Source: an uncultured Thermomicrobiales bacterium (GTDB lineage: Bacteria > Chloroflexota > Chloroflexia > Thermomicrobiales > UBA6265). Taken from it: DNA of 64,000 nt. Both the position numbers and the translations under genes were made by a program. The stretch is from contig CADCWF010000276.1 of NCBI GenBank assembly GCA_902806345.1, positions 596-64,595 on the forward strand, read 5' to 3'. Position 1 is the stretch's first letter. The number at the start of each line of letters is the position of its first letter. Positions 4,087-55,376 of this stretch are shown in pieces. The notes under the pieces are model-generated. The model was not told the origin of the DNA. It searched no databases and saw only the letters and a program-made list of their open reading frames with translations.

Positions 4087-5169
4087 GTGGCCAGCGTCGA
4101 GTTCGTCCACGTCTCCAAGCGCTACGGCCGGGTCGAGGCCGTGAGCGACCTCTCGCTGCGGATCGCGGACGGCGAGTTCATGACCCTCGTCGGCCCCTCG
4201 GGCTGCGGCAAGAGCACCACCCTCAATATGCTCGCCGGTCTGGACGAGGTCAGCGCCGGCGAGATCCTGATCGACGACGAGGCCGTGACCGGGATGCCCG
4301 CCAGCGAGCGCGACATCGCGATGGTGTTCCAGAGCTACGCCCTCTATCCCCACATGAGCGTCCGCGACAACCTGGGCTTCGCCCTCAAGGTCCACGGCGA
4401 GGCGAAGGCGGCGATCGCGGCGAAGGTCGACCGGGCGGCGGCGATGCTCGGGATCGCCGACCTCCTGGACCGGAAGCCGCGCCAGTTGTCGGGCGGCCAG
4501 CGGCAACGGGTAGCGCTGGGACGGGCGCTGGTGCGGGAACCCCGGCTGTTCCTGCTCGACGAGCCGCTCTCCAACCTCGACGCCAAGCTGCGGGTCCAGA
4601 TGCGGGCCGAACTGCGGCTGCTGTTCGACCGGCTGGAGACGACGGTGGTCTTCGTCACCCACGACCAGGCCGAGGCGATGACGCTCTCCGACCGGGTTGC
4701 GATCTTCGACCGGGGGGTGGTGCAGCAGGTCGGGACGCCGATGGAGCTGTACGACGCCCCGGCCAACACCTTCGTCGCCGGCTTCCTCGGCTCGCCGCCG
4801 ATGACCTTCCTGGAGGCGACGGTCGCCGATGGGGCGGCCGGCCCGATGCTCGCCGGCGAGGGGTTCGCCCTCGCCGCGCCGGCGCCGAGAGACCGGCTCC
4901 GGCGCGGCCAGCCAGTGGTCGTCGGCATCCGGCCGGAGGACATCGAGGTGTCCCGCGATGCCGCCGGGCACCCGGCGGCGACGGCGATCTCGCTCGTGGA
5001 GCCGATGGGGTCGACGACGATCGTCTACGCCCCGCTCGGCGGCAAGCTGATCGCCATCGAGACCGACAAGGGGACCGACCTCGCGCCCGGCGACCCGATC
5101 GGCATCGGCGTCCCCCCCGACCGGCTCCACCTGTTCGACCCCGAGACGGGGCGTTCGCTGTCGGCATGA
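4087..5169 (+). CDS. ABC transporter ATP-binding protein (MalK/UgpC-like)
   Basis: Walker A GPSGCGKST, signature LSGGQRQR, Walker B LFLLDEPLS, and a C-terminal MalK-type regulatory domain. Confidence 0.9.
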   Translation: MASVEFVHVSKRYGRVEAVSDLSLRIADGEFMTLVGPSGCGKSTTLNMLAGLDEVSAGEILIDDEAVTGMPASERDIAMVFQSYALYPHMSVRDNLGFALKVHGEAKAAIAAKVDRAAAMLGIADLLDRKPRQLSGGQRQRVALGRALVREPRLFLLDEPLSNLDAKLRVQMRAELRLLFDRLETTVVFVTHDQAEAMTLSDRVAIFDRGVVQQVGTPMELYDAPANTFVAGFLGSPPMTFLEATVADGAAGPMLAGEGFALAAPAPRDRLRRGQPVVVGIRPEDIEVSRDAAGHPAATAISLVEPMGSTTIVYAPLGGKLIAIETDKGTDLAPGDPIGIGVPPDRLHLFDPETGRSLSA

Positions 5170-5368
5170 TGCGGGAGCATCCCACCCCCGTCACTCTGAG
5201 CCCGCAGGCGAAGAATTTCGCTCCGACTCGTGCACGCACCATCCGGAGAACGCCGCTGCGGCGGGTCCTCCTCGGGTCCCCGAGGAGAGGTCCTTCACTC
5301 CGTTCAGGATGACGGTCCGGCGGCCGGTGACCAGGGGCAACCGGCAGCCCGCTCGCCCGGCTTCAGTC

Positions 5369-35840: not shown

Positions 35841-35869
35841 TTGACGCCGCCCGACGCCGGCACTAGGCT
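35841..35869 (+). promoter_or_regulatory. Putative promoter of the fdn-like operon
   Basis: TTGACG (35841-35846), N17, TAGGCT (35864-35869), about 80 nt before the ATG at 35951. Confidence 0.3.
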
Positions 35870-35950
35870 GCCGCACACCAGCGGGCGGTCAGGCCTGCCC
35901 TCCCCCAGAGTTCGGGCGCCGGCGAGCGCGCGGCGCCCCCGGAGGTACCC

Positions 35951-38900
35951 ATGGACAGCGTGGTCCTTTCGCGGCGCGGCCTGCTGCGGCGAGCGGCCGG
36001 CGCCTCCGCCCTTGGCACCCTGGCGGTGCTCGGGGCCGACCTCCGGCCGACGGCCGCCCGCGCCCAGGCGCTGCGGATCCGCGGTAGCAAGACGTACCCC
36101 AGCGTCTGTCCCTACTGCGCGGTCGGCTGCGACACCGTCGTCCACACCGTCGACGGCCGGATCGTCAACGTCGAGGGCGATGTCCGCTCCCCGATCAACC
36201 GCGGCACCCTCTGCCCCAAGGGCGCCGCCATCTACCAGCTCCACGTCAACCCGAACCGCGTCACCGACGTCCTCTACCGGCGGCCGGGCGGCACGAGCTG
36301 GGAGACGCTCGACCTCGAGACGGCGATGGACATGGTCGCCGAGCGGGTCAAGAAGGCGCGCGACGAGACCTTCGTCGAGCGGACCGAGGACGGCAAGACG
36401 CTGATGCAATCGCTCGGCATCTACAGCCTCGGCGGCGCCACGATGGACAACGAATGGAACCACCTCCAGCAGAAGCTGATGCGCGGCCTGGGGGTGGTCG
36501 CGATCGAGAACCAGGCCCGGATATGACACTCCAGCAGCGTCCCCGGTCTGGGGGTGCGGCTGGGTCGCGGCGCGGCCACCACGTATCCAGGTAGCCTGAC
36601 CCACTCGAACGCGATCCTGATCGAGGGGTCGAACATGGCGGAGTGCCACCCGGTGGCGTTCCGCTACGTGATGCAGGCCAAGCTGGCCGGGGCCAAGATC
36701 GTCCACGCCGACCCCCGCTTCACGCGGACGACGGCGATGGCCGACATCCACGCCCCCTTGCGGGCGGGCAGCGACATCGCCTTCCTCGGCGGCATCATCA
36801 ACCACGTCCTCAACTCCAAGCGGTGGAACGAGGAGCCTTTCTTCAAGGAATACGTCACCGCCTACACCAACGCGGCGACCCTGATCAACCCGGAGTTCCA
36901 GGACACCGAGGAGCTCGACGGGGTCTTCTCCGGCCTCGGCCCCTACAAGGAAGGCGCCTGGGGGCTGAACGGCCACGTCGGCCAGTACGACAACAAGACC
37001 TGGCAGTACCAGGGCACCGAGATCGCCGACCAGGGCCGCTCCGCCGCCACCGCCCAGTCCGGCGAGCAGGGCGTCCAGTCCGGCCAGGAGAGTGAGGCCG
37101 CCGAGGCGCCGCCGGCCGGCGGTCCGCCCTACGACGAACTGGTCCGCGGCCTCCTCAAGCCGCCCTCCCAAACCGACCCGACGTTGGAGGACCCGAACTC
37201 CGTCTTCCAGCTCGTCAAGAAGCACTTCGAGCGGTACACCCCGGAGATGGTCGAGCAGATCACCGGCTGCCCGGCCGACCGGATGCGCCAGGTGGCGGAG
37301 ACGCTGCTGGAGAACTCCGGGCCGGACAAGACGAGCGCGATCTGCTACGCCGTCGGCTGGACCCAGCACACCTACGGGCCGCAGATGATCGGCACCGCGG
37401 CGATGCTGCAGCTGCTGCTCGGCAACATGGGCCGCCCCGGCGGCGGCATCGTCGCCCTCCGCGGCCACGCCACCATCCAGGGCTCGACCGACATCCCCAC
37501 CCTCTACCACTCGATCCACGGCTACATGCCGGCACCGACGGTGCTCAAGAAGCACGAGACGGTCTCCGAGTACCTCCAGGCGGAGACCCTGCCAAAGAGT
37601 TACTGGGCCAACATGCCCAAGTTCTTCGTCTCCTACCTCAAGAGCATGTACGGCGACGCGGCGACGGCCGAGAACGACTGGGGCTACGGTTGGCACCCCC
37701 GCATCTCCGGCGACCACTCCCACATGCCGATGGCGATCGCGAAGGCTAAGGACCGCGTCCGCGGGATGTTCGCGATGGGCCAGAACCCGGCCGTCGGCGG
37801 CCAGAACGCGATCTACCAGCGGAAGGCTCTGGCCAAGCTGGACTGGCTGGTGGTCAAGGACAACTTCGAGACCGAGACGGCCGCCTTCTGGTACAAGTCG
37901 CCGGAAGCGGTCAGCGGCGAGTTGCCGCCCGAGGACATCCCGACCGAGGTCTTCTTCTTCCCGTCGGCCCAGGTCGCCGAGATGGACGGCACCTACACCA
38001 ACACCCAGCGGCTGGTGAAGTACCACTTCAAGGCCGCCGACCCGCCCGGCGACGCCCGCTCGGACCTCTGGTTCACCTACCACCTCGGCCTGCGCCTGAA
38101 GGAACTCTACAAGGATTCCACCGACCCCCGCGATGCGGGCATCCAGAACCTCGTCTGGGACTACGAGCCCGATGAGGAGGAAGTCGCGCCGTGGGCGATC
38201 AAGGACGAGCCGAGCGCCCCCAAGATCATGCGGGAGATCAACGGCTACATGTCCGGCAACCAGGAGGAGCACCTGCCGGGCTTTGCCGCCCTCAAGGACG
38301 ACGGCTCGACGACGTGTGCCTCCTGGATCTACTCCGGCATCTTCCCCAAGCCGGGGATCGAGAACCTCCGCGCCGCCCACCGCGACAACACCCCGACGAC
38401 CGCCGAATACGACGGCCAGTCCTTGCAGGGGACCGAGCTCGACTGGGGCTTCGCCTGGCCGGCCAACCGGCGGATGCTCTACAACCGGGCCTCCGCCAGG
38501 CCTGATGGCACCCCCTGGAGCGTCGAGAAGGCGTGGGTCTGGTGGGACCCGGACAAGGTCAACGAGGCGACCGGCGACGCCGGCATGTGGACCGGCCTCG
38601 ACGTGCCGGACTTCGTCCTCGGCAAGGCACCGGACGCCCAGCCGAAGGAGGGTGGCATCGGCCTCGACGCCCACTCCGGGAGCGACCCCTTCATCATGAA
38701 GGCGGACGGCAAGGGGTGGCTCTTCACCCCGACCGGGCTCGTCGACGGGCCGCTGCCGACCCACTACGAGCCGATCGAGTCGCCGGTGCCGAACCTGCTC
38801 TACCCGAACAACCCGACCAGCCCGGTGCTGAAACGGTGGGACGTCGAGGGCAACGTCGCGGCCGCCGCCGAAGACCCGGCCTTCCCCTACGTGCTGACCA

Positions 38901-39271
38901 CCTACCGCCTGACGGAACACCACCTCTCCGGGGTGATGAGCCGCTGGCTGCCGTGGCTGGCCGAGCTGCAGCCGGAGCTGTTCGTCGAGATCAGCCCCGA
39001 GCTGGCGGCCGAGAAGGGGGTCGCCAACACGGAGTTCGTCCGGGTCATCACCCCCCGCGGCGAGATCCAGGCCAAGGCTCTGGTCACCTCCCGCATCCAG
39101 CCGATGGCGATCGCCGGCAAGACGATCCACCACGTCGGGCTGCCCTGGCACTGGGGATATCAGGGCGTCGTCACCGGCCCGGTGACGAACGACCTCTCCC
39201 TCATGGTCGGCGACCCGAACGTGTCGATCCACGAGGGCAAGGCCTTCGTCTGCAACCTGGAGAAGGCGTGA
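35951..39271 (+). CDS. fdnG: Formate dehydrogenase alpha subunit, molybdopterin/selenocysteine-containing, Tat-exported (FdnG/FdoG-like)
   Basis: Track ORFs 35951..36526 and 36554..39271 are in the same frame, joined by TGA at 36524-36526. The context IENQARI-U-HSSSVPGLGVRLGRGAATT matches the FdnG Sec site. Tat signal SRRGLLRRAAGASALG. 4Fe-4S motif CPYCAVGCD. Confidence 0.9.
36524..36563 (+). other. Bacterial SECIS element following the Sec UGA
   Basis: A long imperfect stem runs from +8 to +40. The apical stem is CCCC/GGGG with loop GGUCU, placing G23 and U24 as in the E. coli fdhF SECIS, with U17 at the bulge position. Confidence 0.8.
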
Positions 39272-49938: not shown

Positions 49939-50009
49939 GGCGCCATAGCCAAGCGGTAAGGCACGGGTTTGCAAAACCCTGATCGGCGGTTCGAATCCGC
50001 CTGGCGCCT
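49939..50009 (+). tRNA. tRNA-Cys (GCA)
   Basis: Acceptor ggcgcca/tggcgcc. T arm ggcgg-ttcgaat-ccgcc. Anticodon loop ttGCAaa. Short D arm and 4-nt variable loop. No encoded CCA. Confidence 0.85.
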
Positions 50010-50086
50010 CCGAGACGGCACCCCCAACGGGTGCCGTCGCCGTTTCCGGCCTCCCCTCCCCGCTTGGCCACCTATCAGGAGCCGCC

Positions 50087-51467: not shown

Positions 51468-52772
51468 TCACCCGGCCACAGGGACCAACTCGATCGTCCG
51501 CTCGATCCGAAACGAGAGCGCGGCGTGCGCCTGCCGCAGGGATGCTTCGGCCGCTGCCGGCGTCGCGCCGCGGGCGAAGAGGAAGCCGAGGTAGCTCGAC
51601 GCCTCCGGCAGCGCGGCCAGCGGTTGGTTGGGCTTGGCGGTGATCTCCAGCCCCGTCACCCCGGGGACGGCGCGAGCGGCGTCCTCGCCGCTCCAGCCGC
51701 GCAGCAGCCCCGCCCGCGGGATCGGGATCATCATCACCCCGGCCGCCTCCCCAGCTTGCTCCGACGGCGGCGGCAGATCCCAGCCGACCGCGTGGCGGAG
51801 GATCAGCGCCTCCAGCGTCGTCCCCAGCCCGAACTCCAGCACGCTCGAGCAGAGACCGCCGATCGAGCGGCCGGCCAGCTCGATCGGCCAGATTCCCTCG
51901 TCGTTGATCCGCAACTCGGCGTGGACGGGGCCCTCGCGCAGACCGACGGCGGCGGCGGCCTCGGCGGTCCGAGCCGAGATGGCGACCTGGGTTCTCGTCG
52001 GCAGGCGTGACGGGGTGACGTAAATCGTCTCTTCAAAGAAGGGGCCGTCGAGCGGGTCGGGCTTGTCGAAGATCGCCAGCGTCCGCAGGTCGCCCCCGGT
52101 CAGCAAGCCTTCGACGGCGACCTCGACCCCCGGCAGGTACTCCTCGACGAGCAGGTAGGCGGCCTCGGGTGGCGGCGCCTCCGCCTCGACGATTCGCCGC
52201 GTCCTCGACCAGGCGGCTGCGAAGGTGGCGGCATCGTCGGCGCGGATGACACCGCGGCTGCCGGAGAGCCGGAGCGGCTTGACCACGCAGGGAAAGCCGG
52301 GGCTGGCCGCGACTTCCCGCGCGACCTCCTCGGGGGCGGCCTCGAGCGGGAACCGGCGGTAAGCGGGAACGGGCACGCCGGCCGCGGCGAAGCGCTCCCG
52401 CATCACCCACTTGTCGCGAGCGGCCAGCGCCGCCCCCGAGTCGTTGGCGGGGAAGCCGAGGCGGTTGGCGGCGCGGGCGGCCAGCAGGGTCGCCGCATCG
52501 TCAACTGCCAGCACCGCGGCGAAGGGGTCGGCGGCGTGGAGTGTGGCGATCGTCTCGACCGCCGCCTCCGGATTGGCGAAGTCGAGCGCCGCCTCGACGC
52601 CCCACTCCTCGGCGAGGGCATTCGGCAGATCGAGCCCGCGGACCACCTCAAGGCCGAGGCGCTCCGCGGCGGCCACGAAGGCGGGGGCGCGGTAGGAGGT
52701 CGGGCCATGGAGCAGCAGCACCCGGGGCCGCAACCCCAGTCTGGCCAGCTCCCCGCCCCCGCCCCGGTCCAT
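51468..52772 (-). CDS. ATP-grasp domain ligase (carboxylate-amine/L-amino-acid ligase-like)
   Basis: Pre-ATP-grasp plus ATP-grasp architecture (PCVVKPLRLSGSRGV, LLVEEYLPGVEVAVEG, PVHAELRINDEGIWPIELAGR). The start is at 52772 (4 nt after the upstream ORF stop) or at 52808. Confidence 0.8.
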   Translation of the reverse strand: MDRGGGGELARLGLRPRVLLLHGPTSYRAPAFVAAAERLGLEVVRGLDLPNALAEEWGVEAALDFANPEAAVETIATLHAADPFAAVLAVDDAATLLAARAANRLGFPANDSGAALAARDKWVMRERFAAAGVPVPAYRRFPLEAAPEEVAREVAASPGFPCVVKPLRLSGSRGVIRADDAATFAAAWSRTRRIVEAEAPPPEAAYLLVEEYLPGVEVAVEGLLTGGDLRTLAIFDKPDPLDGPFFEETIYVTPSRLPTRTQVAISARTAEAAAAVGLREGPVHAELRINDEGIWPIELAGRSIGGLCSSVLEFGLGTTLEALILRHAVGWDLPPPSEQAGEAAGVMMIPIPRAGLLRGWSGEDAARAVPGVTGLEITAKPNQPLAALPEASSYLGFLFARGATPAAAEASLRQAHAALSFRIERTIELVPVAG

Positions 52773-52776
52773 CCGG

Positions 52777-53025
52777 TCAGGCACCCTCGCCCGAAGAAAC
52801 CGCCTCACGCGGCACCCCGAGGTCGCAGACGACGAGGGTGTAGACGCCGCCGGCGCCGTCCGGGGTGACGCTGATGTCGACGACCCGCAGGTTCGGGAAG
52901 CGGGAGCTCGCGCGATCCTTGGTCAGCCACTCGTTGACCGGGTTCATCGCCAGGCCCGGGTCGGCACTGGCGCTCGGGCTGTGGAACAGGAAGACGCGGG
53001 AGTTGGCGGGCACGAGGTTCATCAC
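52777..53025 (-). CDS. Small hypothetical protein (82 aa) immediately upstream of the ATP-grasp ligase
   Basis: Track ORF. GGAGG lies upstream. High GC3. MNLVPANSRVFLFHSPS...NEWLTKD...LRVVDISVTPDGAGGVYTLVVCD. No family recognised. Confidence 0.55.
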   Translation of the reverse strand: MMNLVPANSRVFLFHSPSASADPGLAMNPVNEWLTKDRASSRFPNLRVVDISVTPDGAGGVYTLVVCDLGVPREAVSSGEGA

Positions 53026-53218: not shown

Positions 53219-53869
53219 CTAGCCGCCGGCACGGCCCAGCGCCACCGCTAGCAGGAGCGCCGCCACGACGAGGGCGATGTTCAGGCCGCGGGCGGTGGGA
53301 CGCAGCGTCTCCAGCAGCCCCATCGTCGCCTCCGGCTCCAGCTTGCGGGCGACGGGCCAGAGCGCCGTCGCCTGGCGGGCCAGGCCGAAGAGGGCGCCGG
53401 TCAGCAGCCCCCACCCGGGACCAGAAGTGAGTTGGAGCGCGAGCAGGACGAACAGCGCCGTGTGGTAGACGGGGGTGTAGAGGCCGCACCCCATCATCAG
53501 GCCCCAGATGGCGTAAATCCGCGACGGGGAGACCCCCCGCGCCCAGCGGCGCGGCACCTGCCGCTGCCGGCCGAGCTGGTAGACCGGCCGCGCCACCGCC
53601 ACCGCCAGCGCCGCCAGCGCGACGGCGCCGACGATCACCGCCCGCCAGGCACCAAGCCCAAGCAGGCTGCCAAGCAGCCCCAGCCCGAGGCCGACCGTGG
53701 CGCCGCCGACGACCGCGCCCAGCACGTGGACTGCGCCGTAGCGCCAGGCCCGGACGGCGTCTCCCCGACCGAGGAGACCGAGGCTCAGCCCCATGTTGAC
53801 CGTTCAGGGGACGTGGGCGTTCAACAACCCGACGAGGGCGGCGAAGAGGGGGAGCGCGACCACGGTCAT
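53219..53869 (-). CDS. DsbD/CcdA-superfamily (DsbD_2-like) polytopic membrane protein with an in-frame TGA (candidate selenocysteine, or a pseudogene)
   Basis: The tail of track ORF 53804..54688 (MTVVALPLFAALVGLLNAHVP) and ORF 53219..53794 (MGLSLGLL...) are in the same frame, separated only by TGA (53804-53806) plus 3 sense codons. The joined product is 216 aa with about 6 TM segments. The TGA follows Pro in TM1, and the only Cys is in TM4 (MMGCGLYTP...SGPGWGLLTGALFGLA). Confidence 0.55.
53759..53778 (-). other. Candidate SECIS-like hairpin downstream of the in-frame TGA
   Basis: The mRNA reads GUCUCCUC-GGUC-GGGGAGAC: an 8-bp stem including one G-U pair, with a GGUC loop starting 33 nt after the UGA. 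Confidence 0.35.
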
Positions 53870-54197
53870 CGGGCGGAGTACCTCAGCCTTGAGCGCGTTT
53901 GGAACCGCGGCGCCGGACCCCGCTCGACGACGAGACCGCCCCGGCCCAGCACCCGTCGTCGCATCGCCCGCCCGACCATCGGGGAACAACCGGCCGAGCG
54001 TGCTCGTCACGAACGCGGCGGCGAACGCCGGGAAGTCTAGGCGATCGGGGGACAGGAGGCCGCCCCAAGTCGTTGGCTCTGTCCGGGGCAGGCGCCTCCG
54101 GCCACGGGCTGAGTCAAACGGCCGGATGGCCTCATTTGCCGATGGGGATGCTCGGCCAGGGAGCAGACTCGCCGGCAGTCCCGAACTTCCCGCGGCG

Positions 54198-54959
54198 TCA
54201 GGCGACCGTGCGGCGGGCCAGAGCTGGCCGGTTCGGGTCCGCCAGCAACCACTCCGCCTCGGCGCCGCCCGGCGGGCCGATCTCGACCCAGCGGTGGCGG
54301 ACGGCGTGGAGGATGGCGCCGACTCGGTCGTCCACCCCCAACTTCCGGAGGACCGAGGTGAGGTGGTTCTTGACCGTCTGCTCGGTAACGTAGAGGGCAC
54401 CCGCAATCTGCTTGTTGGAGAGCCCCTGAGCGGCGCAGTCGAGCACAGCCAGCTCCCGTGTGGAGAGCGGCAGGGCCTCCAGGGCCGGAGCCTCGGGATG
54501 CCGACCCGGCAGCAGGCGGACATCCGCCCGCACCCGGTGGGCGAGCCCCGGCCGCCGTCCGAGGAGCGCCAACAGGGGCTGCTCGCCGGCGACGACCCGG
54601 TCGACCGTCTCGACGAGGGCGGCCGGCGGCAGGTCGCGCGGTAGCACCGCCGCGACGCCGGCGTGGTAGGCCTCCAGGAGCCGGGCATCGTCGGCGAAGA
54701 GCGAGACGAGGAGCAGCCGCGCTCGCGGCTCCTTGCGCCGGAGGATGCGCGCCGTCTTCAGCCCGGAGATGCCCGGCAACTGGACGTCGAGCACGATCAC
54801 TTCCGGGCTGTGGACGTCGGCGGCGTCGATCGCCTCGTGGGCGCACGCCGCCTCGGCCACCACCCGGTAGCGCCCGGTCCCCTCGAGCGCCCGCCGCACC
54901 CCCGTCCGGAAAAGCGGATGATCGTCGACGAGCAGAACCCGCCTGCCTCCCCCCAACAC
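54198..54959 (-). CDS. NarL/FixJ-family response regulator (REC + LuxR HTH), no adjacent kinase
   Basis: GTG at 54959 follows GGGAGGGAAGGGG. RVLLVDDHPLFRTG...VIVLDVQLPGISG receiver. LSTRELAVLDCAAQGLSNKQIAGALYVTEQTVKNHLTSVLRKL. Confidence 0.85.
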   Translation of the reverse strand: MLGGGRRVLLVDDHPLFRTGVRRALEGTGRYRVVAEAACAHEAIDAADVHSPEVIVLDVQLPGISGLKTARILRRKEPRARLLLVSLFADDARLLEAYHAGVAAVLPRDLPPAALVETVDRVVAGEQPLLALLGRRPGLAHRVRADVRLLPGRHPEAPALEALPLSTRELAVLDCAAQGLSNKQIAGALYVTEQTVKNHLTSVLRKLGVDDRVGAILHAVRHRWVEIGPPGGAEAEWLLADPNRPALARRTVA

Positions 54960-55376
54960 GGTCGCCCCTTCCCTCCCCGCTCTCCGGGCCGTCCCCCGGT
55001 GGTCCCGCCAAGGAGGCTCCCGGCCCTCCCCGGCGCCGCCGGGCCTCACCCCGGCCGGGACCGTTCGGCCCGTAACACCATCGTAGGGGGCGGACGGGCG
55101 AACCGCAACGGACAGTAAGGCAATGCCTCTCTCGCACCGCCAGGAAGAATTAGCTAGGGGCGAGAGACTTTTGATGACACGGTGTCACTGATCGCTGGCG
55201 TCCGAAGGCCACCAATGGCCACGTTGCCCCGCCGGATCGTGCCAGCCTGGCCACGCCGGTTGTCATAACCCGGTGACGCGCGGGAAGGACGCACCGGTAC
55301 CTCGGAACTCGGGCACGCCCCGGCGACGGCGGAGGACGGCGCGGCCGGCGATCCGGCGGCGCGGCGCGTGGCGGAA

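Follow-up and report, generated by a model that had tools for sequence, protein, structure and literature searches.

The prokaryotic selenoproteome consists mostly of soluble thioredoxin-fold proteins. Among membrane-linked thiol systems, MauE and MauD serve the maturation of the disulfide-rich small subunit of methylamine dehydrogenase. Proteins of the CcdA/DsbD_2 type (PF13386; 5VKV) contain about six transmembrane (TM) helices in a 3+3 arrangement in which TM1 and TM4 are broken, with a reactive residue directly after a Pro at the TM1 break, a required second Cys in TM4, and adjacent thioredoxin-fold partners. The gene described here lies on the minus strand (53219-53869) of a 64,000-nucleotide stretch of DNA from an uncultured Thermomicrobiales bacterium, which is referred to below as the window, and contains an in-frame UGA at codon 22. 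The family to which it belongs appears to share with CcdA the six helices, the breaks in TM1 and TM4, the position of the reactive residue after Pro and the thioredoxin-fold neighbors. In contrast to CcdA, the family keeps one reactive residue, the TM4 Cys being missing in most members; selenocysteine (Sec) is that residue in most sampled lineages, and invariant motifs of its own are present (an R-Q-V-P-R-R-W loop, L-G-x-G and F-G-x-x-R). Based on its sequence and that of its relatives, the gene most likely encodes one 216-residue, six-helix membrane protein with Sec at codon 22, and its identity as a selenoprotein is very highly probable. Taken as a whole, the locus is best explained, with good confidence, as encoding a Sec22 protein that is decoded through a selenocysteine insertion sequence (SECIS) and belongs to an uncatalogued Sec/Cys family distantly akin to DsbD_2/CcdA.

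Sec has a precedent in the DsbD superfamily. TsoB (NF045694) is a rhodanese/DsbD fusion-like selenoprotein with two Sec residues in a UxxxxU arrangement (PMC13188914 Table 1), and it resembles the window protein in that Sec occurs in a protein whose membrane part is related to DsbD. Unlike TsoB, the window protein carries a single Sec, within a P-U-x-x-x-M motif, and lacks a rhodanese domain, and in an NCBIfam scan NF045694 matched neither the window protein (E ≤ 10) nor its relatives. A preliminary description of this DNA regarded a membrane-embedded Sec as not known to have been described in this family; the TsoB fusion, though unmatched by the window protein, is already catalogued as a DsbD-related selenoprotein. 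A further comparison is offered by MerT-like proteins (PF02411), the SaoP ABC permease, YeeE/YedE and SO_0444 efflux proteins. In these, too, Sec is in or at the edge of a TM segment and the database entries stop at the UGA; however, they belong to unrelated families with unrelated folds, and their genes are found in settings of metal or sulfur transport instead of beside MauE and MauD.

The coding region begins with ATG at 53869-53867 and ends with TAG at 53221-53219 on the minus strand. The 21 N-terminal codons (53807-53869), which read MTVVALPLFAALVGLLNAHVP from ATG 53869, form the first half of TM1 and end in His-Val-Pro; this segment is conserved in the same frame in relatives and is skipped by all gene callers. 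The Sec codon follows directly (TGA, 53806-53804), succeeded by ACG GTC AAC (TVN) and an ATG at 53794, from which the frame is open until TAG. The conceptual product around Sec22 is ...NAHVP-U-TVNMGLSLGLLGR, and its sole Cys is residue 128 (TGC, 53486-53488), at the predicted TM4 break. Two minus-strand open reading frames (ORFs) in one frame, split by TGA plus TVN and joining to 216 residues with a single Cys, had been described before, and these features are present as reported. A GAGG located 11 nt 5' of the start codon (53881-53884, minus strand), read from the sequence, is a possible Shine-Dalgarno motif for the upstream start. Homologs likewise begin at an equivalent ATG or GTG with GAGG-type motifs 5' of it, and comparable motifs, GAGG or AAGGAG, are found before the upstream start of L002, L003 and L007.

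A word-indexed protein-database search gave 132 homologs (120 of them listed), nearly all of which are called at 186-191 residues and start at the Met located four codons past the TGA. A profile search over 1.84 billion representative proteins gave 849 relatives; among the best 150 of these, almost all aligned from residue one, and the full-length ones aligned to profile position 1-3. DNA was examined for 35 loci from genomes and metagenomes, and the TGA position was visible in 31. The codon is TGA in all 31, at 47-88% protein identity, and TGC, TGT or TGG occurs at this column in none of the 31. The upstream peptide is kept in frame (M-F-x-T-A-V-V-V-L-A-A-L-T-G-L-L-S-A-H-[AV]-P), and the spacing from the TGA to the invariant Met is constant at three codons. 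These three codons vary at third positions only (ACG/ACA, GTC/GTG and AAC/AAT), as do the Pro, His and Ala codons 5' of the TGA. In a more distant tier of relatives, an in-frame TGA directly after Pro is found in each of the four loci with DNA, which read ILASWSP-TGA-GSS-ATG (L038), ANWSP-TGA-GLS-ATG (L039), AAYAP-TGA-VPN-ATG (L040) and SSWSP-TGA-GES-ATG (L042).

These data bear on the competing explanation set out in the preliminary description, namely that a TGG was converted to TGA by nonsense mutation. In its general form, in which a Trp, Cys or other codon became TGA and the product is truncated or inactive, this explanation would agree with databases that carry just the 186-191-residue downstream ORF. 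It is rendered exceedingly improbable by the presence of TGA at the same column in 35 of 35 Sec-type loci from divergent lineages, by the purifying selection seen on either side of the TGA, and by TGG being seen nowhere at that column. Moreover, the one decayed copy has a different appearance. P0155 (L036:1701-2345 and L037:168-812), the sole copy in the window's family that reads through, carries GCA (Ala) in place of the Sec codon, a His-to-Arg change, a degraded RQRQVPRRW loop and a hairpin that is kept with its loop mutated to GGCC; because of the degraded motifs and the GGCC loop, it looks like a selenoprotein gene copy that decayed recently. A global reassignment of TGA is opposed by the rest of the window, in which TGA is an ordinary stop that closes 17 of the 37 well-supported ORFs.

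When a full-length alignment of the distant subfamilies was used as the query, about 38 Cys-form proteins of 244-285 residues were retrieved, two of which have a source name, in each case an Acidimicrobiales metagenome-assembled genome. The Cys forms read RSTWSP-C-G[LV]SM-L[ST]T[IV]TP, and Cys is invariant at the TGA column in these long-form homologs. They align column by column with the Sec forms, in which L039 and L042 have WSP-U-G[LE]SM. Sec and Cys sharing an aligned column is the classical sign of a selenoprotein, and it is apparent here from the aligned sequences. Since the Cys forms are called straight through this region, the N-terminal helix and the body belong to one polypeptide, with the Met internal.

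This arrangement can be set against a two-cistron alternative, in which a single-helix micro-protein of 21-24 residues is followed by a 191-residue protein re-initiated at the ATG 9 nt on, and the hairpin is regulatory or coincidental. Split membrane proteins are known, and the invariant Met four codons past the TGA, where gene callers always begin, is what such an arrangement would provide. However, the Cys forms are one polypeptide in which the Met is retained internally (SPCGLSM), so the Met is structural rather than merely a start. The 9-nt spacer never breaks the frame and changes only synonymously, and no purine-rich Shine-Dalgarno-like motif is found in the 9 nt 5' of ATG 53794. Finally, the hairpin is SECIS-specific in loop identity and spacing in all subfamilies. 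Two cistrons are accordingly considered improbable, though less remote than a nonsense mutation, and the single Sec-containing chain is retained as the interpretation of the gene.

The hairpin itself, GUCUCCUC-GGUC-GGGGAGAC, is located at 53759-53778 (minus strand), and its loop (53770-53767) begins 33 nt past the UGA, at the coordinates previously described. The published bacterial SECIS (bSECIS) criteria comprise a 3-9 nt loop, a 4-16 bp stem, a G in the first two loop positions, a spacing of 16-37 nt and a minimum free energy ≤ -7.5 kcal/mol (PMC13188914 Fig. 2). With a 4-nt GGUC loop, an 8 bp stem, 33 nt spacing and -11.9 kcal/mol when folded alone, the window hairpin agrees with these in loop, stem, spacing and energy. 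Selection on the RNA is visible at synonymous sites: the 5'-arm and loop codons CTC, CTC and GGT are kept unchanged in 30-31 of 31 sequences where the adjoining Leu and Gly codons vary freely, and two four-fold sites in the 3' arm alternate only between A and G, both of which pair with U. The inner five pairs are intact in 30/30 sequences and the seventh pair covaries (C-G 13, U-A 7, U-G 2). Over the whole stem, 86% of cells are paired, compared to 52-73% when the partner columns are slid. Across five of five independent Sec subfamilies, a loop that starts with GG or GU lies exactly at +36 on a stem of at least 5 bp, against a background of 2-4% per position for such hairpins, and the stems are unrelated: CUCCUC-GGUC-GRGGRG in the window type, UUUGCC-GGGAGCAG-GGCAAG in L038, CCCCAU-GGUCC-AUGGGG in L039, GGUUCUC-GGUCA-GAGAACC in L040 and UCCGCUC-GGG-GAGCGGG in L042. 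In the one Cys-form gene scored, a GG-loop hairpin is absent from +33 to +39, but a shifted hairpin can form there, which makes this single gene a weak negative control.

A second Sec-type gene is present in the window. The fdnG gene for the formate dehydrogenase alpha subunit (35867-39271, plus strand) has its TGA at 36524-36526 within ...ENQARI-U-HSSSVPG, where a plain ORF scan divides it into a Molybdop_Fe4S4 ORF and a Molybdopterin ORF. Its hairpin, CCCC-GGUCU-GGGG, has the same GGUC apical loop as the membrane gene (36545-36548), as had been noted earlier, and this loop begins 18 nt past the UGA, compared to 33 nt in the membrane selenoprotein. Because this Sec-type fdnG is in the same window, which is indirect though strong evidence of the Sec trait, the organism is taken to decode UGA as Sec. 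The earlier proposal that the UGA specifies Sec by way of the GGUC hairpin is, then, strongly supported by TGA conservation, the Cys forms, coding through the stop, SECIS covariation and the Sec trait. The in-frame SECIS (53778-53759) would presumably recruit SelB and tRNA-Sec, and the UGA would be read as Sec22.

To place the protein structurally, a model of a natural Cys-form protein built from a deep alignment was used (predicted local distance difference test 93.6, predicted template modeling score 0.89). It replaced a first model, that of P0155, the Ala copy, which had a predicted local distance difference test value of 77.6 and a best Foldseek E of 0.8 against the Protein Data Bank (PDB). 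The Cys-form model has six membrane helices, with TM1 broken (2-22 | 24-32) and Pro24-Cys25 at the break, and TM4 likewise broken (123-136 | 146-155); helix 2-22 is the counterpart of the 21-codon N-terminal segment of the window gene. The preliminary description had positioned the TGA directly after a Pro in TM1, which is the case; the model puts the Sec position at the Pro-induced break and not deep within an unbroken helix. Sequence profiles provide a connection to DsbD_2: the P0281/L042 subfamily of Sec forms passes PF13386 at 29.2-29.9 bits (cutoff 24.9), with the match starting one residue past the Sec, P0283 scores 24.7 bits against the same cutoff, and the DsbD_2-matching distant Sec members are tied to the window's family at E 6.5e-32. 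Invariants across the superfamily are few, namely P-[U/C]-x-x-x-M, the Q of R-Q-V-P, the first Gly of G-x-x-L-G-x-G, L-G-x-G and [FY]-G-x-x-R.

In the model, Cys128 corresponds to a position between invariant Gly residues where TM4 breaks. At this column, Cys is found in 15/15 members of the window's clade, in 9 members of the sister clade (17 have Ser) and in 1/38 Cys forms; across the family the column is occupied by C, S, T, A, V, L, F, G, M or I, and Cys is entirely absent from 12 full-length Sec forms. The earlier suggestion that Sec pairs with the TM4 Cys is therefore plausible for the window's own protein, as judged from its clade, and is not supported as a feature of the family. In the window's clade, by analogy with the two cysteines of CcdA, Cys128 may resolve a Sec22-Cys128 selenylsulfide. 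A different Cys is present in the N-terminal segment of some relatives: in L007, L012, L014, L016, L021, L029 and L034 (LAALCGLLSAHAP-U), a Cys precedes Sec by nine residues, about 2.5 helical turns away on TM1, and L015 has two adjacent Cys residues in this segment. The Cys at -9 is not conserved in the family but could serve those lineages as another resolving residue.

The genomic context of the relatives points to thiol chemistry. In most sister-clade loci with enough upstream sequence, and in L038, L040 and the P0240 contig, the family gene is the last in a cluster with the order MauE (PF07291), MauD-like thioredoxin-fold protein, Cys-rich protein with a twin-arginine translocation (Tat) signal, and family gene. 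The MauD-like protein is membrane-anchored, and its best curated match is TIGR02661 (E 1e-11, full length, 45 bits versus a cutoff of 189). The Cys-rich partner, of 150-200 residues, combines a twin-arginine signal with a domain that is very rich in Cys, and gives no Pfam, NCBIfam or PDB match; the idea that it is MauA-like was dropped, as it has no sequence similarity to MauA. Members of this Tat Cys-rich family (e.g. ..CWCSAIC..YQCCDCNCYGQQCAC..) nearly always adjoin MauE and the membrane-protein gene described here. They are encoded at L006:7367-7909, L040:1587-2048, L038:1684-2217, L002:~4890-5290, L041:4594-5988 and L043:4166-4990, the L041 version ending in C-terminal GYWLVASDGGIFAYGDAxFxGS repeats. 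The Cys-form loci keep MauE and the Tat-signal Cys-rich protein directly upstream, and L002, which belongs to the window's clade, keeps the Cys-rich gene directly upstream. With its row of MauE, MauD-like protein, Tat Cys-rich protein and family gene, the cluster resembles the mau accessory system, in which accessories act on an exported substrate that is rich in disulfides. It differs in that no methylamine dehydrogenase genes are present and in that the window locus is without MauE and MauD. A search of the literature on MauF as a DsbD-like protein gave nothing usable.

Several observations weigh against the interpretation of the window gene as a SECIS-decoded redox protein of CcdA ancestry. 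The stability of the hairpin is unremarkable for GC-rich DNA, with z = -0.07 for folding energy relative to shuffles and a rank between the 4th and 50th percentile among windows of the same genes, and a minority of relatives have a mere 5-bp core of -6.3 kcal/mol; thermodynamic significance was consequently dropped as evidence, and the positional, covariation and synonymous-site tests were used instead. Rfam gave no SECIS-type match in the window, but as fdnG is also unmatched, this result is uninformative. No selA, selB, selC or selD is found within the 64-kb window, in which the only tRNA is tRNA-Cys (GCA) at 49939-50011 (plus strand) and tRNA-Sec (selC) does not occur. As for affiliation, the window protein with U replaced by C has no Pfam match at E ≤ 10, including to PF13386 and PF02683, and the Cys forms also lack a Pfam match. 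NCBIfam returned noise only for the window protein (MamD, E 0.03), and two PDB sequence-profile searches gave neither the window protein nor the Cys forms a match; what they returned was low-complexity noise (prion and GAPDH chains), with CcdA absent. A Foldseek search of the Cys-form model against 350,542 PDB chains had 5VKV (CcdA) as its top match; however, this match is weak (E 0.15, probability 0.77, TM score 0.31-0.35) and not significant. As the alignments show, conservation does not extend to the second redox Cys by which CcdA/DsbD is defined. Lastly, tblastn (E ≤ 10) across the 64-kb window detected no MauE, MauD or Cys-rich homolog, its matches being noise.

Because the direct scans fail, the CcdA match is weak and the defining second Cys is not conserved, the family is considered a distant, atypical relative of DsbD_2/CcdA rather than a member in good standing, on evidence that is weak but convergent. 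The DsbD/CcdA membership proposed at the outset thus stands in a weak, transitive form, through P0281/L042 and the CcdA top fold match, and does not extend to a Pfam match for the window protein itself. Similarly, the functional proposal that follows is borrowed from relatives, since the window is without MauE, MauD and the Cys-rich gene.

Tentatively, the Sec/Cys residue is proposed to be a membrane-embedded selenol/thiol redox relay for extracytoplasmic disulfide chemistry that would have operated ancestrally with MauE and a MauD-like protein. The relay would be the single conserved reactive residue, which follows Pro at the TM1 break in P-[U/C]-x-x-x-M. Ancestrally, together with MauE and the membrane-anchored MauD-like thioredoxin, it would make or edit disulfides in the Tat-exported Cys-rich protein. 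More doubtful is the broader proposal that this CcdA-like scaffold, lacking its second Cys and with one Sec (obligate in sampled Chloroflexota), is the first known case of a membrane-embedded relay built on a single Sec and the fourth part of an unrecognized extracytoplasmic maturation system, which would help to explain the retention of Sec in aerobic soil bacteria of the Thermomicrobiales type.

The serious functional rival also accepts a genuine selenoprotein, with Sec coordinating a soft metal or metalloid as part of a transporter or sensor. Metal exporters are found in the LysE/DsbD_2 superfamily, and MerT-like proteins, SO_0444 Cu/Zn efflux proteins and SaoP are catalogued membrane selenoproteins with metal-related roles (PMC13188914 Table 1; bioRxiv 10.1101/2022.07.06.499078). 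A ligand role would suit the single conserved reactive residue, the conserved His two residues before Sec in the window's clade (H-x-P-U), the window locus without redox partners, and a Cys-rich neighbor that could bind metal. On the other hand, the conserved neighbors are thiol-redox proteins (MauE and the thioredoxin-fold MauD-like protein), the His is not kept in the WSP-U/C subfamilies, and metal-transport or metal-regulatory genes do not recur beside the gene. Metal binding is accordingly judged unlikely, less so than either alternative to Sec decoding, and the redox relay is carried forward.

With respect to novelty, a 2026 inventory lists 119 prokaryotic selenoprotein families, among which TsoB, MerT-like, SaoP, YeeE and SO_0444 are the nearest entries, and none of the 119 matches the motif, fold or context of this family (PMC13188914). 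No MauE-linked or stand-alone DsbD_2-type selenoprotein was found in BSepDB, deep-Sep or the Haft 2022 preprint, and neither the Sec forms nor the Cys forms nor the Cys-rich partner is covered by a model in NCBIfam release 20. From this lack of entries, the gene appears to represent a selenoprotein family that is new, although the phenomenon is known, and that is widespread in soil bacteria and uncatalogued. Two things set it apart: its Sec is embedded in the membrane, and no other reactive residue is conserved on the CcdA-like scaffold. The database entries seen, those of NCBI included, are unnamed or labeled "hypothetical protein", and the Sec-type ones are truncated. Since the homologs listed by the two protein-database searches are all truncated at the Met four codons past the Sec or are fragments, the catalytic residue and a whole TM helix are missing from the records among the matches listed; a family model with U at the Sec column would mend the truncated entries. 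The family adds a membrane-embedded member to the prokaryotic selenoproteome from soil Chloroflexota, which are under-represented in selenoprotein surveys. Its scaffold with one reactive residue does not fit the two-cysteine model of electron transfer and provides a test case for Sec replacing a Cys pair. The four-gene module of MauE, MauD-like protein, Tat Cys-rich protein and family protein is uncharacterized as a unit.

Three additional loci show variations on the cluster. In L041 (2771-4055) and L043 (2287-3627), both of the Cys form (Acidimicrobiales-type), two more unannotated genes of ~265-270 and ~165 residues are located 5' of MauE in the same orientation, and the Cys-form cluster may be larger than three genes. 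In L044 (2159-3151; P0141), an interrupted MauE frame runs in frame into the family body, without TM1 or Sec. Either a rearranged pseudogene or a genuine MauE fusion could account for it; a fusion would hint, in Rosetta-stone fashion, that the two proteins interact. On an 859-kb contig (L005:6712-7991), apparent frameshift errors garble the MauD-like and Cys-rich products relative to L006, and a called 202-residue product enters the N-terminal segment of the selenoprotein and ends at the Sec TGA.

In the window's clade, the synteny consists of a LuxR-family response regulator, the selenoprotein, a ~85-residue protein and an ATP-grasp ligase. The response regulator (54198-55049, minus strand; Pfam Response_reg and GerE) is directly upstream; it is also found upstream in L001, L002 and L009. 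Directly downstream, the ~85-residue protein (52777-53025, minus strand) has no Pfam match and high GC3, and reads ..VFLFHSP..NEWLTKDR..VYTLVVCDLG; homologs are directly downstream in L001, L004, L008 and L009. The following ATP-grasp, L-amino-acid-ligase-like gene (51468-52808, minus strand; Pfam ATP-grasp_4, LAL_C2 and ATPgrasp_N) is syntenic in the same four loci and displaced in L002. Based on this gene order, the ~85-residue protein, the ATP-grasp protein and the selenoprotein may work together as a unit in the window's clade.

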